Below are positions 5,625-58,084 of a stretch of DNA of 64,000 nucleotides, in pieces; within the stretch, counting starts at the first letter, position 1; each line of letters opens with the position of its first letter. The translations under genes and the position numbers were made by a program. Below the pieces are notes generated by a model that was not told the origin of the DNA, did not search any database, and saw nothing but the letters and a program-made list of their open reading frames with translations. Source of the stretch: Podarcis filfolensis (Eukaryota); assembly GCA_964270895.1 (NCBI GenBank), contig OZ185441.1. One strand, given 5' to 3'.

Positions 5625-6400
5625 CCAAACAGCACATTATTATGTTTATTTCAAGCACCATGCAGGTTTGATCAGAGAATTTGTGTAAAATCTTCCAAAT
5701 ATTTATGATAATTCTACCACATCATTTCGGGGTTGTTGTTTCTAACTGCCATGTGATTTAGTCTGTCTATTTCCTTCCAGTCTGGGGAGTAGTGCTTGCA
5801 AGTTGAGCTAGTGATCACAGATGCCTTCCCCATCTGGCCTTTAGGACCAGTTGAAATTATAAATTCTTCAGCAGTGTGCGTTGTGTACAGGATTAGAGGG
5901 AGGGAGAGTTGGAGCGGTGGTGACTACTTCTGAAATCGTCTTTCTTAACCAGAGCAACCTTTGCTTTTGTTTCAAGTAGTGGTGATAAGAAAGAGGTGCC
6001 TGGGTGATGATAAATATATAAAGCAATGGAGTGAATTCTTGACATTAATTGCATGCCGTGATGATAGGGTCCAAAATAACTAATAGCAGACTTCTGGCTT
6101 GGATGGGAAGTTATAACAGTTTGCCTTCATAGATGATTATCTCAAAATTATTTTAGAATTCTTTTGTCTATCAGATTATGAACAGAATTTGTACACTAGT
6201 ATGTTTTTATGAAATAACATTGTCAAAGGAGCTCATACTTTCACAGAATTTTGTGTCGCAAGTGGGTTAAGGGCAACTTCAATAACGGTTTTCTTCAGAG
6301 AAAACCTGTGTCACAAGCATGTGCCCACCCCTTTTCATGAGGAAAATGTAAACTAGAAGTGGGCTGTATGGGTTTTGTGTCAATGCAGTACATCTTGATA

Positions 6401-16969: not shown

Positions 16970-17222
16970 GAGAGCCAGTGTGGTGTAGTGGTTAAGAGCG
17001 GTAGTCTCGTAATCTGGGGAACCGGGTTCGCATCTCCGCTCCTCCACATGCAGCTGCTGGGTGACCTTGGGCCAGTCACACTTCTTTGAAGTCTCTCAGC
17101 CCCACTCACCTCACAGAGTGTTTGTTGTGGGGGAGGAAGGGAAAGGAGAATGTTAGCCGCTTTGAGACTCCTGAAGGGGAGTGAAAGGCGGGATATCAAA
17201 TCCAAACTCTTCTTCTTCTTCT
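16970..17222 (+). mobile_element. tRNA-derived MIR/Ther1-like SINE (Squam3-like), full length
   Basis: A box tggtgtagtgg at 16981, B box-like ggttcgcatc at 17025, CORE-like ctgggtgaccttgggccagtcac, L2-like 3' end and (TCT)n tail. About 95% identical to the copy at 40663 over the body. Confidence 0.85.
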
Positions 17223-40662: not shown

Positions 40663-40915
40663 GAAGCAGCTGTGGTATAGTGGTTAAGAGCGGTCGTCTC
40701 GTAATCTGGGGAATCGGGTTCACGTCTCCACTCCTCCACATGCAGCTGCTGGGTGACCTTGGGCTAGTCACACTTCTCTGAAGTCTCTCAGCCCCACTCA
40801 CCTCACAGAGTGTTTGTTGTGGGGGAGGAAGGGAAAGGAGAATGTTAGCTGCTTTGAGACTCGTTCGGGTAGTGATAAAGTGGGATATCAAATCCAAACT
40901 CCTCTTCTTCTCTTC
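40663..40915 (+). mobile_element. tRNA-derived MIR/Ther1-like SINE (Squam3-like), second copy
   Basis: Aligns with 16970-17222, including a 71-nt identical block (tgaagtctctcagcccc...gaatgttagc). Confidence 0.85.
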
Positions 40916-47639: not shown

Positions 47640-47995
47640 AATTTTCTGTCTCTGAGAACAATTTATATTTTACCAATATTTGAGACCACTTCCCTGATTT
47701 CCCATGCATTTATCTGTGTAATAGAAGGGTGGTATAAAAAAATTGACAATAATAGTAAGCAAGTGGAACAGAGCTATATCAGCAGTGGGTGCATCTATGC
47801 TCCTGCTGCAGCCAAAGCTGACTCTTGGGATAAGGCCATAAGCCTTGAAAAAAAATCATTTCACCGTATTAGTAACTTCTCTGTATGACAAAATCTCCCT
47901 CTTGGACTGTTGTTGCATAGCACAACAACATGATCAATACAGCTGACCTGGAAAAATATTGAGGGGGTTATTATTAGTTGGTTTGGGAGACAGAG

Positions 47996-48131
47996 TAAGG
48001 TTACCAGATTTTTTTTTTCATTGAATCCGGGGACACTTTTCAACTTCAATAGGAGTGATAGGATTTTGTCAGGGGACTGATTTATAAATCCAGGGACTGT
48101 CCCCGGGAAACGGGGATGTCTGGTAACCTTA
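47996..48131. mobile_element. hAT MITE, 136 bp
   Basis: Perfect 13-bp TIR taaggttaccaga / tctggtaacctta. 8-bp TSD agacagag (47988-47995) versus agatagag (48132-48139), 7/8. Internal gggac/gtccc subterminal motifs. Confidence 0.88.
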
Positions 48132-51100
48132 AGATAGAGGGAAGACATCACTGTGATGCTTTGTAAAGGATCTTGAATTGGCAAATGCAGGGTGTGGGAG
48201 TTTTCCAAGTCTGTTATATCATCCCTGTGGCTGCCTCTTATGTAGTTTGAATTAATACAGCATGCACCAGAATTTTCTTGTAGTGAGTAATTTTTCCAAC
48301 CATGGAATCTTAAATTGAGGTGATGAAAGAAATCTGTCATGAATATCAATCCACCAAGCATTGATAAAAAGTTTAAGGTTTCCTTGACTAATGAGGTGTG
48401 AAATTTATTGTCATGCACCACAGTGTTCAGAGTAAATGTTCTATTTCACTGGCAATGTTCTGCAATGGGATCCAGTCATGCACTGGAATTAAATAAAATA
48501 AAATATGCCTATGTAAGCCTAGTCCCTTAAAAAAAATTACAATGTGTTATCTACATCTTCTTCATCCAAAATACCATGATTGTGAAAGCAGGAATTCAAC
48601 TTCTTTGGGTTTGCGGGGCTGATTAGTTTCCCAAATGACAACACAAAATCATTTATAGTGTTAAGACCTACCCTACTGTGGTGGGTCTTAGTTTCCATTT
48701 GGAAGTTGCATTGCAGTTAGTTTATTTCAACATGAGAGAAGTGAGGATTTCAGTCTATTGAAGAGAATCTTGATTTACAATCAAGACTGGGGTTGGAATT
48801 TGATGTTATGGCAACCACGAGTCTGATGCAGACAACATCAGCCCTCTGTTGTCTCCTCCGTTCTCCCTTGTAATGTCTAGTCATATTCAAGTATGATGTC
48901 ATCAGGCTGCACGTTTCCCCCAGCCACTATGCGTCATTTGCTGCCCCTTGCCAGGGCAGGGAAAATTATCGTGTGGTGACATGTTATGCGTTCAGCATCC
49001 CTAGATGTTACAAGCCAAAGGGGAGGAAAGAAAAATGGATGGCTGTTTTGGATGGCAGCTTTGTGTTTGCTGTAATGTCTAGTTCAAACCTGAGGAAGTA
49101 TGAGGCAGGTTTGCACCCTACCGTTCTGAATGCTTTAGCGATTTCTGTGTGCAAGTTTTCTCCATTCTTGCTCAGCAACTACTTTGAGGAGGGGCACTTT
49201 GAGGGAGGTGTGGCGTGCTACCTATCTCCCAGTGTGAACTGCCAGCGAATTTTGCTCCAATAGCTACTACCCTTGCTTTCAGTCACAAACACCTCTTTTG
49301 TCTCTGGGTTAGCAATTGCATGAAAGCAAGCAGTTGCTATTCAGAGGGCCAAGTTTGGCCTTAGAGCCGATCCTTGTCCTACATCGTCAGTGGGAAACCT
49401 CTGGCCTTTGGGCTAAATTTAATGCTTAGAGCAAGCCCCGCTAGGATTGGCTGCACTAGGGCGTTGAAGCTGAGCTGCAAAGGAAAAATAGGAAGTTCAC
49501 CTAGAATGTGTTCCCAGCTCTTTCCTTGACATTGATGGTAATGTCATGATTCTGTCAGGTGACTGACAGGTCTGCAGTCCTAACAGCCACCCTGTCCTAT
49601 ATGATTGCTTATAAAGCTGTGTCTCCCACTGGAAATCTCAAGAAATAAGATGATTTCTCCGCAATACACAAATATGTATGTATGTTCAACATTTCACGTG
49701 CCTCACATATACCACACTAAACTTCGTAACTCATGAAATGGCCCTTGGATAAGAAGAGAGAAGTGTTAGCATACTCAGAATGTTGTCTCTCCTCCCCCCC
49801 CCCCCATCTCTCTCTCACACACAATGCACATGTAGATTTCAGCTATAAATCTCAGAATAGGATGGAAAGGAAACCTCATAATATTGAAAAGAAATGCTGT
49901 GTTTTTGAGAGTGAAAGGGTGGTGATTATGGTATTGTTAGTGGTAAATTAAGGTTACAGACCATTTATGTTTCTATAAAATCGGGGAAAATGTGAAAATA
50001 GGTTTTGATATAAGGTTACAGAATTTGTTTATAAAAGTTAATAAACATTAAATAACTTGCAACACATGGAAACTGTATTCAGTTTATCTACATTTACACC
50101 CCTCATTGCAACTCTCCATGTCTCCAGGGCGGCTTAACAGTTAAAAAGGAAATTTTAAAATGCAGTGCAATGAATGAAATACTAAAATAAAACTGGCAAA
50201 ACCAGTAGATTTAAAAAAATCTCAGAGAAGCACAACAGAGTAACAACATTACTCCCATCTGCTTAACAGATAAATGAAGTATCTATCTTTCTTTTTTTTT
50301 GATATTGCTTGATAAGAAGAGGCTAGGGAAAGCATATTTTCAGATTCCCCAGGTTTCCCTACAGAGTTTTAATTCCTTCTTCTTTAGTTCTGCATAACAC
50401 CAGGCTATCCAGCAAAGTAAACGTTCCACCCTTATCTTGCATGCCAAGCTGACTTCAGCATCTGAGAAGCTTAAGAACTCGATACATCAAATTACCCTGC
50501 TCGAACTGTTGTTTAGTGCAGGCCATTTTGTCCTGTCATCCTTGTGACAGGATGTCAAAGCTTTGCTTTCCGTTGCCAGCATCTGCAGGAATCTGATATG
50601 CTACCTCCTCATTACACAGGGGACAAACATCAAGCAATGGTGATGGAAACCAGCAAGTCAGACAGCTGCAGGCACTGGAAACTTCTGCTGCTGGACTGCA
50701 TCAGCCTTGTGCTAGAAATAATTTTTCCCTCTCTCAACTTCTTTATTCAATTATGTTGGCTTTTTTTTAACATTCTGCTTTTCTTACAACAGCTTCGTTT
50801 CTTATTGCATGTTTTTTATTGTACTAAAAGCAAACAGAAAAGCATGCAAAACTTCGAAGATTTTTCTGAGAAATCATAATATATTCTGTGGCAGCAAATA
50901 CCTATCTCTTTGTTCAGCCACTTTATCGAGCCAATGCAATCTTTTCTCATAATATATAAGAGCTTTCTAGAAGAAGAAAAACCAGATGATCCTGTTAAGG
51001 CCTCCCACTTACAAGCATGAATCTGGGAGAGAGAAAACAAGAATCTTGTTACTCTTCTTTATGATTTAACAAACTTACCAAAACACCCATTTCATCAAGC

Positions 51101-55038: not shown

Positions 55039-56035
55039 AAATTTATATGCTCACTCATTAATTAATATACCATACCATTTACATGGCACTAATATTAAAA
55101 TTAGATTTTAAAAGCCTGTCAAAATACATTGTTCTGTAGACTATATCTTTGAAAGGCAATTATTTTTTAATTGTTCAGCATCTACAGAGTTTATGCCTAG
55201 CCATGTTGGTAGAGCACTCTCCTTATTTTGGTGATGACGTAAAATGCTATTTAAGGTATAATGAACCATTTGAATTTGATAATTGTAATACAGAAGTGTG
55301 ATTAAACACATTAAACTGCTGGTCAGCCATTGGTTCATGTCATTACCTGTTTCCTCCTGGCACTTTATAACTTCTCAAATTTAACAGTGAGAATTTCTTT
55401 ATTTTTATATTTCAATTCAGAAAGAGCAAATACTATATTCACAAATGCAACATCTGTTCTGATTTCTGCTCTGCAAGGGAGAAACTATACTAGACAGATC
55501 AACTGCAATGAAGTTTTTAGAACAGCTGAAAAAGAATCTAATTTATTGGCAAACTTGACAGTTATGATGCATCCTGGACGAAGCCACTGGCTTAGGCCTA
55601 TTTCAGCACACAGCAGTTGTTGAAAAGTAAGTTTTCAGCCTCTGGAAAACTGAAACAATTGAGCCAAACAGATTGAATCAATTTAATTGCGATCTACAAA
55701 TCATAAGAAAACAGTATTGCACTTATATAAAAAAGACGCTATAGTTTTTCTAAGAATTGGCTTACAAAGGTATAATTGTTCATAGGAAAAAGAGACAGTA
55801 TACAGTTTAATTTCCTCTTAAAATCCTAATCCTAATACTGTTTCATAGTACAATGGTCTTTCATATTTCATATTCTACAGCAGGTGGATATGTTAGCATG
55901 CGAGTGCTTTCAGAACATGGCTGAAGAAATAGTGAGATTGCGTTCCATCACATAATTTCAGCTTATTTTCTATGAAAGAGCCATGATGCAACCCTATTTA
56001 GTTAATTTAAAGAACATTTGTTGTAGTGAAATAAG

Positions 56036-57157
56036 TTTTTTTTTTTTTTTTTTAAAATAATATTTATTAAAATTTTTCAAAAATACAAAAAATATCACTT
56101 TACGGGACTCCCCCCTTCCCCCACCCCTACCATATTCCCCTTTCATATTGTTGGCCAAACAAGTTCCCCATTCAAATTGAAACTTAATTTGTTTTACAGT
56201 AAAAAAAAGAAAAAAAAAAAAAAAAACCCAGTGTTCTTTCCCCAAGACCCACCCCATGTCATTCCACAATTTCCATTTTTTAATAAAAGAAGCACCCCAG
56301 ATAATAGAAACAGAAAAGGTAGAGAATAAAAAAATATAATGAATAATAGACCAATTCAGCAAAAAATAACCAAGTTGGCAAGCCTTTGGAGTTTTAGTTC
56401 TCCCCCCCCTGTCCCCGGTTTAATTTCCCCCTGACCATCAACCCCTGGTGTCTGCCTGGAATTCTTAAGACCATAAATCACAACTTTTCCCCAGCTCCTT
56501 GCTGGCTTTTTCTTTTTTAAAATTAAAAATAAATTTTTTTGAAAATCAAAATTATTATTATTATCATTATTTTTCAAAACTTTAACTTCAGTCTTTAATA
56601 AAACTGTAATAGAACTCCCTCCATTGTTCTTTCCAGGTTGTAGTCTGATTTCCCTTTGTTCCGCTGCTAAAACGTTGTAGTTCGAAAGTTTGGTAAGTCT
56701 GCAGGGATGGTTGTTATTCAGGGGCAAAACCTTACGTTCAGTCCCTTCCTTTCTTCAATAGAAAAATCTATTGTCTCCTTTAAAAAAACAAAAAAGAAAA
56801 CACCCTGAAGACGAGATGTTATTTCCGTTTTGCAGCTTTCCCAGAAGATAACCAGTCCTGTAAAGTTCCATTGGTGTTTTTCCACTTTCCCAATCCTTGT
56901 AATGTCCCGAAACTCCTCAAGGGGGATTGTTGTATCTTTGTTTCCTCTAATCCAAAAGTCAATTTGTTATCCATATTCGCCATTTTGTATCCAAATTTTA
57001 ACAAGTTGTAGCAAATTGTATCAAATTTAACCAGCCAAGTTCTCATAATAAAATCCACTCCGCTTTTCGACTTTGACAGCTATTTTGACAGCTGTCAAGA
57101 TCTCCGACTCCTTTCACCAGGCTCTCTCTTCAGTCACCCCGGTTCCCAGGGGGGGGG
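56036..57157 (-). mobile_element. ~1.1 kb polyadenylated retroposon (L1-type insertion hallmarks, no RT/EN ORF detected)
   Basis: Direct repeat gttgtagtgaaataagttttt at 56020-56040 and 57158-57178. T18 at 56036-56053 is a poly(A) on the minus strand, with AATAAA (tttatt, 56063-56068) 9 nt upstream of it. G-rich tract near the 3' end. The minus-strand ORFs show no RT or EN motifs. Confidence 0.85.
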
Positions 57158-58084
57158 GTTGTAGTGAAATAAGTTTTTGCCTGGAAGAGAAACACACAGT
57201 CATCAGCTGGTATTGATTAGTACAAACTACCAATGCATAACATTTACCCTCCCCCCAAAAAATAGAATTTTGACAGACAGAGCAAATACAATTATGTATA
57301 TCTTGTGTCACACATTCTTTCTAAAGAAAACAGTTCTAAGGCCTACCGTATCTGATCATCACTCCAGTAATGCAGATTCCTGCTCTGGCAGTCTCTTCCC
57401 ATCCCTTCAGCAATTTGTTTCTGGAAATAAATCCCTCTTCCCCTTTGGGTCTTAATCATGGTTTATTTGTATATCTCCTATTTATATGAAAGATTTCAAT
57501 CAACCAGAAGGACACAATGCTTTGATGCAATAGAACAAGGGAGAACATAAAGCCCATGGATTGGATGTGGAAGGTGGAGTCTCTTACCTGCCCTGCTGCC
57601 TCCCCTCCTTACCCCATGCCCATGCAGGAATTTGGCTTTTTAAAAGCTTCCATTCATGCCAAATGGAACCTTATTTTTAGCCTAATTGTTGCTTGGGCAT
57701 GCTCTGGTGGCGATGATCACAGTTGGGAGGATAATTCTAATTCTCTAGTCCCTACACACTGTAAAGCCCTCTTCCCAAAAGCTTTCAGTGGTGTTAATGG
57801 GAACTTTTTTTAAAAAAAAAGCCAAGCCTAATTGCAAAGGAAGAGAGAGAAAAGCGGGGAAGGAATGGGGAGGATAAAGGAAGAGAGAAAGAGAAAGAGA
57901 GAGAATGGAATTGATGGAAGGTGAGAGGGGCAGCTTTCACCTTGCCCAGTTTTAGCTCTAACTCTGCCCACCACTGTCATGCAACCCTTGTGGTGTAGTA
58001 AATGTTCAGGAGCTCATCCTGGCAGCCCCCATAGCCATGACCCCAGGGATGGGCTGTTAGGATCAGCTGACAGTCATAGAATAG

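Follow-up and report, generated by a model that had tools for sequence, protein, structure and literature searches.

A gene-less L1-derived retroposon family in Podarcis filfolensis and its likely descent from ORF1-bearing half-L1s

Introduction

The proteins of mammalian L1 elements mostly copy the RNA that encodes them, and the successful passengers of L1 in mammals are either short polymerase III SINEs or half-L1s that keep ORF1. The primary paper on HAL1 elements is reportedly that of Bao and Jurka in 2010. HAL1 is defined, in the accessible text of PMC5753468, by encoding ORF1p. The bipartite LINEs without ORFs form another group, which in the accessible sections of PMC5786205 comprises RIME (Ingi), NARTc, RTESINE1/2, WALLSI3, Bov-A, and the derivatives of Vingi and R2; those sections of this 2018 paper name RTE, Ingi, Vingi and R2 as the only sources, and L1 is not listed there. 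In lizards, the clade-1 L1 has a long 5' UTR that starts GACTTCCGG and continues with ATGGCG, and it ends in poly(A) (PMC5381506, excerpt). Our searches of the openly available literature brought up no description of the family reported here or of any ORF-less family derived from L1, and the accessible portions of PMC5872511 and PMC5203782 said nothing about non-autonomous L1 derivatives.

We analysed a stretch of 64,000 nucleotides from Podarcis filfolensis (contig OZ185441.1, assembly GCA_964270895.1), called the window below. It carries a retroposed element that is very probably a 5'-truncated member of a young gene-less family of L1 type; the family likely arose by way of a half-L1 with ORF1 only, and its copies were likely made in trans by L1 ORF2p.

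Results

The insertion in the window

The element lies on the minus strand and is bounded by a perfect 21-bp direct repeat (56020-56040, identical to 57158-57178). An AATAAA at 56068-56063 is followed after 9 nt by A18 at 56053-56036, of which five As are common to the tail and the target-site duplication. An earlier reading of this DNA from its letters alone (the sequence-only reading) had reported the same repeat, signal, spacer and tail, and all of them were found where it had placed them. Relative to the family sequence established below, the copy is 5'-truncated and lacks the first 566 bp. There is a 4-bp microhomology at this 5' break, where the final four bases of the duplication equal the family sequence, so that, on that side, up to 4 bp may not belong to the real duplication. 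A single substitution separates the window copy from another locus, L002. The parts, from the 5' side of the element, are the following.

57158 to 57178, no strand: target-site duplication on the 5' side of the element; the sole copy remaining in the empty site
56895 to 57157, minus strand: distal 5' UTR of L1 origin (family positions 567-829); this copy has lost the 566-bp CpG-rich head
56451 to 56894, minus strand: decayed remnant of a shortened ORF1; lower boundary approximate
56280 to 56450, minus strand: segment aligned with the last L1 ORF2 codons; boundaries approximate
56054 to 56279, minus strand: 3' UTR aligned with the L1 3' UTR; contains a purine-rich block and the AATAAA
56036 to 56053, minus strand: poly(A) tail, A18
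56020 to 56040, no strand: target-site duplication on the 3' side of the element; direct repeat
56819 to 57058, minus strand: short ORF singled out by the sequence-only reading; located for the most part in the 5' UTR, in a frame other than that of the ORF1 remnant, and judged incidental

Pfam searches in five frames across the element gave a best E of 0.051 and nothing meaningful, Rfam searches gave nothing near a gathering score, and a tRNA search of two full-length copies (L003 and L104) gave no hit. An ORF2 DNA profile matched neither of the two subfamilies (A and B, below) nor the window copy. The earlier statement that the element has no tRNA-type head and no reverse transcriptase or endonuclease is thereby borne out. 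Elsewhere in the window, neither a second copy of the family nor any L1 protein match was found, and the 51 flanking frames of at least 62 aa from 44000 onward had no Pfam match.

The window also holds a pair of 242-bp repeats with 93% identity (16979-17219 and 40671-40911). Its sole stop-to-stop frame above 150 aa, at 47861-48445 on the minus strand, has no Pfam match.

The empty site

The empty site that had been predicted from the sequence was seen in all four public runs examined. In each run, one contig joins 56019 directly to 57158; aligned to 55200-58000, these contigs have a single copy of the repeat, no element, and the flanking record positions adjacent to each other. By its label, run X3 comes from the same organism, though from a different sample, and the others (X4, X9 and X10) come from three other organisms. 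About 1% of bases in the X3 flank differ from the window, so X3 possibly represents another population. The contigs reveal that an empty allele exists and not its frequency. Since the site was found empty, the insertion is recent, and since it was empty in four of four runs, the repeat-flanked structure did not arise by chance. In X3, X4 and X10 pieces of the family were deep; in X9 they were thin. Among the runs listed as carrying the sequence there was no RNA run, which speaks neither for nor against expression. A further presence/absence difference lies 400 bp from the element, where one X10 contig skips 185 bases (57575-57759).

A family of two subfamilies

A search of the genome (1.5 Gb) with the element returned 950 candidates, and all 40 that were scored span the whole query at 99-100%; the copies that the sequence-only reading had expected therefore form a multicopy family. 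Among the best 30 loci, 25 continue upstream for about another 566 bp and begin at a single sharp, GC-rich 5' start, and the remaining five, the window copy among them, are 5'-truncated. The full-length element is about 1.67 kb in subfamily A and 1.69 kb in subfamily B. Exact patterns counted 451 heads and 240 subfamily-A tails genome-wide (reversed controls, 0). On two contigs, 38 of 44 tails had an exact head in range, and inspection of the other six added four full-length and two truncated copies, so that 42 of 44 are full length. We also examined 40 heads, 37 of which had no tail at the expected distance and three an odd spacing; these proved to be 36 full-length copies of subfamily B, one 424-bp fragment, and three A copies carrying an indel, and no ORF2 was found downstream of any of the 40. 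The elements thus amplify as a family of their own, a feature of the ORF-absent bipartite LINEs.

Substitutions between subfamilies A and B amount to 18.7%, with many indels in addition, and the divergence is uneven: 4.8% in the head, 25% in the ORF remnant and 28% in the 3' part. Divergence is 0.63% within B (35 copies) and 1.0% within A (17 full-length copies chosen by genome position); an earlier value of 0.22% within A was discarded, having been biased by the choice of best matches. Subfamily A splits into two clusters, at about 99.4% and 97.7-98% to L003.

Uniformity of this order (0.6-1.0% in each subfamily) could be obtained from a few source loci, as in a burst of dead-end retrocopies of host non-coding RNA, from just one or two transcripts with their start in an old L1-derived copy. 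We consider such a burst very improbable, because the full-length copies bring their own head, the two A clusters are what successive sources should leave behind, and every part of the element, from its 5' start through to its poly(A) signal, aligns with L1 or half-L1 sequence (see below). The retrocopy of a non-coding RNA that the sequence-only reading had kept as an alternative is not supported, and the alignments, together with the hundreds of copies, speak against its other caveat, a single-copy retrocopy of a spliced mRNA.

The duplications measured at 75 separate insertion sites of the two subfamilies span 13-23 bp (15-21 bp in 70 of them) and have an A-rich start. In about 61% of them the first base is not A and immediately precedes the A-rich run, which suggests that the nick in A and B is one base off the mammalian position; the mammalian nick consensus is TT/AAAA. 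The duplications of autonomous L1s in the genome look similar by eye. Among the L1s examined there is no close partner, as would be expected if an element of L1 origin were now mobilised by another LINE (CR1, L2 or RTE). We give this reading almost no chance: in their pure poly(A) tails, and in duplications of 15-21 bp that begin A-rich, the copies resemble the autonomous L1s examined in this genome, whereas CR1, L2 and RTE generally leave repeat tails and different duplications.

Some individual loci deserve mention. At L112, the head of an A copy is interrupted by a full-length B copy in reverse orientation. At three of the best 30 loci (L007, L010 and L028) the insertion lies within a 176-186-bp satellite. 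L109 is a 424-bp B head without poly(A), and L133 is an A copy with an internal deletion of about 330 bp; both are flanked by duplications.

A head shared with L1

A profile built from nine L1 5' UTRs of the same genome matched subfamily A over positions 1-482 (E 1e-76) and also subfamily B (5e-77), in both cases across roughly the first 490 bp; one reversed control of this profile reached E 0.0012. Full-length copies and autonomous L1s share their first base and are 72-75% identical over 334 bp. The head has a GC content of 64-66% and a CpG ratio of 0.94. The view of a non-autonomous, internally deleted and 5'-truncated L1 derivative, one of two offered from the letters, is supported.

A relaxed head motif had 2,337 matches genome-wide and none in the control. 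We traced 38 hand-picked variant heads downstream. Twelve opened into L1s at least about 6 kb long, three of them with an entire 1245-aa ORF2; another 21 led to elements of about 2 kb with one short ORF, and the last five to short or ambiguous types of other kinds. In L142, one of the L1s, ORF2 has endonuclease and reverse transcriptase domains, and its match to human L1 ORF2p reaches E 1e-173; with an APE endonuclease and a reverse transcriptase closest to L1, L142 falls in the L1 clade, as judged against a reference set without Tx1. Many intact ORF2 frames from several L1 families are present in the genome.

The nearest L1 lineage by head is that of L142, L143 and L163, to which the 72-75% identity applies, and no autonomous L1 head more than about 75% identical to A or B was found among the 12 motif-reached and 22 other hand-picked L1s. 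Twenty loci with the top RVT_1 scores and two L1s of 1290 aa were tried as parent and rejected, as they match only in the last 40-60 bases or so and in simple repeats. The possibility that the window copy is an ordinary L1 3' end, named by the sequence-only reading as what would overturn it, fell away as well: the L1s examined gave no such match, and the sequence upstream ends at the 5' head after 566 bp.

The body and the half-L1s

The elements of about 2 kb form a radiation of half-L1s (L147-L154, L158-L161, L165-L167, L169-L171 and L176-L178). Their ORF of 200-237 aa, with thousands of candidates in the genome, corresponds to an ORF1 without its middle and has a shared terminal motif. A profile of this ORF matches the ORF1 of the autonomous L172 at E 1e-22, and pairwise matches cover the N-terminal and C-terminal parts of ORF1, with about 95 residues absent between them. 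The missing middle is likely the RRM, as judged from the known layout of ORF1p. The domain names used here for the lizard ORF1 (coiled coil, RRM, CTD) are likewise inferred, as searches against Pfam and PDB gave weak coiled-coil-type matches only and no match to L1 ORF1p or Transposase_22; a genome search with Transposase_22 was also without match, and its controls were equally silent. For one half-L1, L161, none of 334 database candidates was a homologue of the protein at E 0.001, and its ORF had 2,587 candidates in the genome and was stop-free in 121 of the best 150. The dN/dS of half-L1 ORFs was 0.18-0.70 in 12 non-independent single-copy pairs, the upper bound staying under 1 for 10 of the 12; that of the full ORF1 was 0.12-0.21 in four pairs, a fifth being saturated.

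A junction profile was made from the ends of 15 half-L1 ORFs that have the terminal motif in common. On L172 it splits into two matches, one at 1853-1969 in the ORF1 tail and the other at 5726-5925, covering the last ~43 ORF2 codons and the 3' UTR, and the two overlap at a short near-identical stretch. The profile matched neither reversed targets nor six L1s of another lineage. Its split on L172 points to a deletion of about 3.76 kb at the origin of the half-L1s. The profile also matched subfamily B (E 4e-7), and A at E 0.3.

Subfamilies A and B are colinear with the half-L1s L161, L148 and L160 through to the tail. In BLAST searches, A aligned with L161 over positions 1-918 at 70%, and with autonomous L1s over 334-558 bp only. 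A 3' profile of autonomous L1s matched B alone, at E 4.5e-9 with a high composition bias, and a joint 3' profile of half-L1s, A and B gave E 6.5e-26. The LINE 3' end is thus direct in B and, in A, comes through alignment with B and the half-L1s. Of the test suggested by the sequence-only reading, that both ends should resemble an autonomous L1, the 5' half held for A and B and the 3' half directly for B only. The ORF1 and ORF2 DNA profiles of autonomous L1s matched neither A nor B, and the ORF1 trace at the protein level was weak (E 0.003 in B, 0.097 in A). The window copy itself had no direct significant match to the autonomous-L1 profiles, so that its body is linked to L1 by way of B and the half-L1s. 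Its segment aligned with the ORF2 tail adjoins the ORF1/ORF2 deletion junction (at about 56450), is strongly decayed and contains an AT-rich insertion; the ORF2-tail homology is significant for B and the half-L1s, and not directly for the window copy.

In a midpoint-rooted tree of 40 heads, from which two short elements of the 38 were omitted, A and B belong to a group (100/99) with the half-L1s L161, L147/148 and L160/165/176 and the L1s L142/143/146/162/163. Half-L1 and autonomous heads interleave, and well-supported branches force at least three changes between them. A protein tree of the ORF1 N-terminus places the half-L1s apart from the autonomous L1s (97/91, with a long-branch warning). 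The single junction combined with several head types suggests an exchange of promoters (5' UTRs), possibly between half-L1s and contemporary L1s, as far as such trees can tell. The heads of A and B are closer to each other (0.05) than their bodies are (0.20-0.35), set against distances to L161 of 0.20 for heads and 0.44-0.74 for bodies, which also points to a possible exchange of 5' UTRs.

Deletion derivatives of other shapes also occur. L144 (401-2150) combines a 5' UTR with the last 213 ORF2 codons and a tail, and no duplication was found around it, and L157 and L175 are shorter, duplication-flanked derivatives (494 bp and 790 bp).

Direct deletion products such as L144 are what one would look for if the gene-less family had come straight from a full-length L1 by deletions of its own, its likeness to the half-L1s reflecting common L1 ancestry. 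The distance of A and B from L161 (43-47% substitutions in the ORF remnant) and the place of their head, in an unresolved fork with half-L1s and autonomous L1s, also suit such a history. We nevertheless regard it as quite improbable: A and B share with the half-L1s the order of parts and the position of the junction between ORF1 tail and ORF2 tail, and the 918-bp alignment of A with L161 exceeds those with autonomous L1s. Derivation appears to have passed through ORF1-bearing half-L1 families, a step missed by the sequence-only reading; that reading had also passed over the decayed ORF1 along much of the element and the ORF2 tail.

Loss of the reading frames

Neither A nor B has an ATG frame above 75 aa, and they have none in common in the body. 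The ORF1 start is lost in A, where it reads ATT; in B the ATG is kept and a stop follows after about 25 codons. The ORF1 remnant of both subfamilies has frameshifts and deletions. In the window copy, the homologue of the start codon is the ATT at 56894-56892, and against L161 the remnant shows frameshifts, stops and a net loss of about 200 bp. The ORF at 56819-57058, put forward by the sequence-only reading as a possible ORF1 remnant, does not correspond to it: this ORF begins in the 5' UTR, the real start homologue is in another frame, the MANMD ATG of the short ORF falls within sequence missing from the half-L1 relatives, and subfamily B has no such ORF. Weak ORF2 C-terminal matches in the body (E 0.2-0.5) were rejected, since the DNA alignment places them within the ORF1 remnant. 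As in the ORF-absent bipartite LINEs, no protein-coding capacity is predicted from frames, Pfam and profiles.

A splice-donor-like GTGAGT at family position ~328-330 (L003:1261-1268) ends the conserved head and is found in 34 of 38 related elements. With a 68-codon frame in the head that is open in both A and B, it could favour the idea that a useful peptide is still made, either by splicing from this site or from the head frame. We see hardly any likelihood in this idea. The ORF remnant diverges like the 3' UTR (25% vs 28%) and has many indels, no examined copy was seen deleted from the donor-like site, and, since the head is just 4.8% diverged and GC-rich, an open frame there says little.

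Taken together, the window copy is a real, young, polymorphic member of a gene-less L1-derived family.

Discussion

We propose the following origin for the family. A deletion of about 3.76 kb would have fused the ORF1 tail to the last ~43 ORF2 codons at a short microhomology, giving half-L1s of about 2 kb with an ORF1 of 200-237 aa that lacks the middle. One half-L1 branch would then have lost its ORF yet gone on amplifying, splitting into A and B. RNA polymerase II would initiate at the internal CpG-rich L1 promoter, and the RNA would end at the element's own AATAAA. L1 ORF2p, probably together with borrowed ORF1p, would bind the poly(A) tail, nick an A-rich target and copy the RNA by target-primed reverse transcription. 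We infer these steps (transcription, polyadenylation, capture by ORF2p and target-primed reverse transcription) from the established biology of L1. As the element is short, most copies would have been finished; in the window copy reverse transcription would have halted 566 bp early, and lacking the head and hence the promoter, this copy is likely a dead end.

More tentatively, and with slightly less than even confidence, we suggest that the genome may preserve a full and as yet undescribed series of reduction, from L1 to a long-lived radiation of half-L1s of single origin, which encode an RRM-less shortened ORF1 and repeatedly exchange promoters with contemporary L1s, and from these to a gene-less 1.7-kb descendant, transcribed by polymerase II, that now ranks with the most prolific young members of the group. 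If so, the L1 clade would have yielded its first self-renewing family without ORFs, and such families could arise via a protein-coding intermediate, overcoming the preference of L1 for its own RNA. A non-coding derivative of L1, 1.7 kb long and present in hundreds of young and mostly full-length copies, would widen the range of LINE clades that yield gene-less parasites. Three stages in one genome would allow direct tests of what trans-copying needs and of the role of the shortened ORF1p. Full-length copies spread CpG-rich L1 promoter regions, and sites of presence or absence are usable as population markers. Half-L1s and ORF-less bipartite LINEs are already known, the present family may already be catalogued, and the half-L1 radiation is arguably as interesting as the gene-less family.

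Among known elements, SINEs resemble the family in being non-coding, mostly full-length and, as we suppose, mobilised in trans. The family differs from them in that no tRNA or other small-RNA head was found and the head is an L1 promoter region, and it is five times longer than a typical SINE. The lizard clade-1 L1, in the accessible text of PMC5381506, has the same two motifs as the family head, with a spacing that is longer in the family than in the published consensus; unlike this L1, the family has neither ORF1 nor ORF2.

HAL1, as presented in the accessible parts of PMC5753468 and PMC5786205, is likewise L1-derived, lacks ORF2, forms a family of its own and has L1-type ends, but it encodes ORF1p, which the gene-less family has lost. 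The half-L1 relatives of about 2 kb, in which ORF1 is present, fit the HAL1 kind as characterised in the accessible text of PMC5753468, with the difference that their ORF1 of 200-237 aa lacks its middle and is under weaker constraint (0.18-0.70) than the full ORF1 (0.12-0.21). The gene-less family is closest in organisation to the ORF-absent bipartite LINEs, with which it shares LINE 5' and 3' ends, the lack of a protein, presumed transcription by polymerase II and dependence on a partner (PMC5786205, accessible sections). It departs from them in its length of 1.67 kb, in the decayed ORF1 that it has kept, in its apparent passage through a protein-coding intermediate, and in a distance of about 25% or more from any L1 found.
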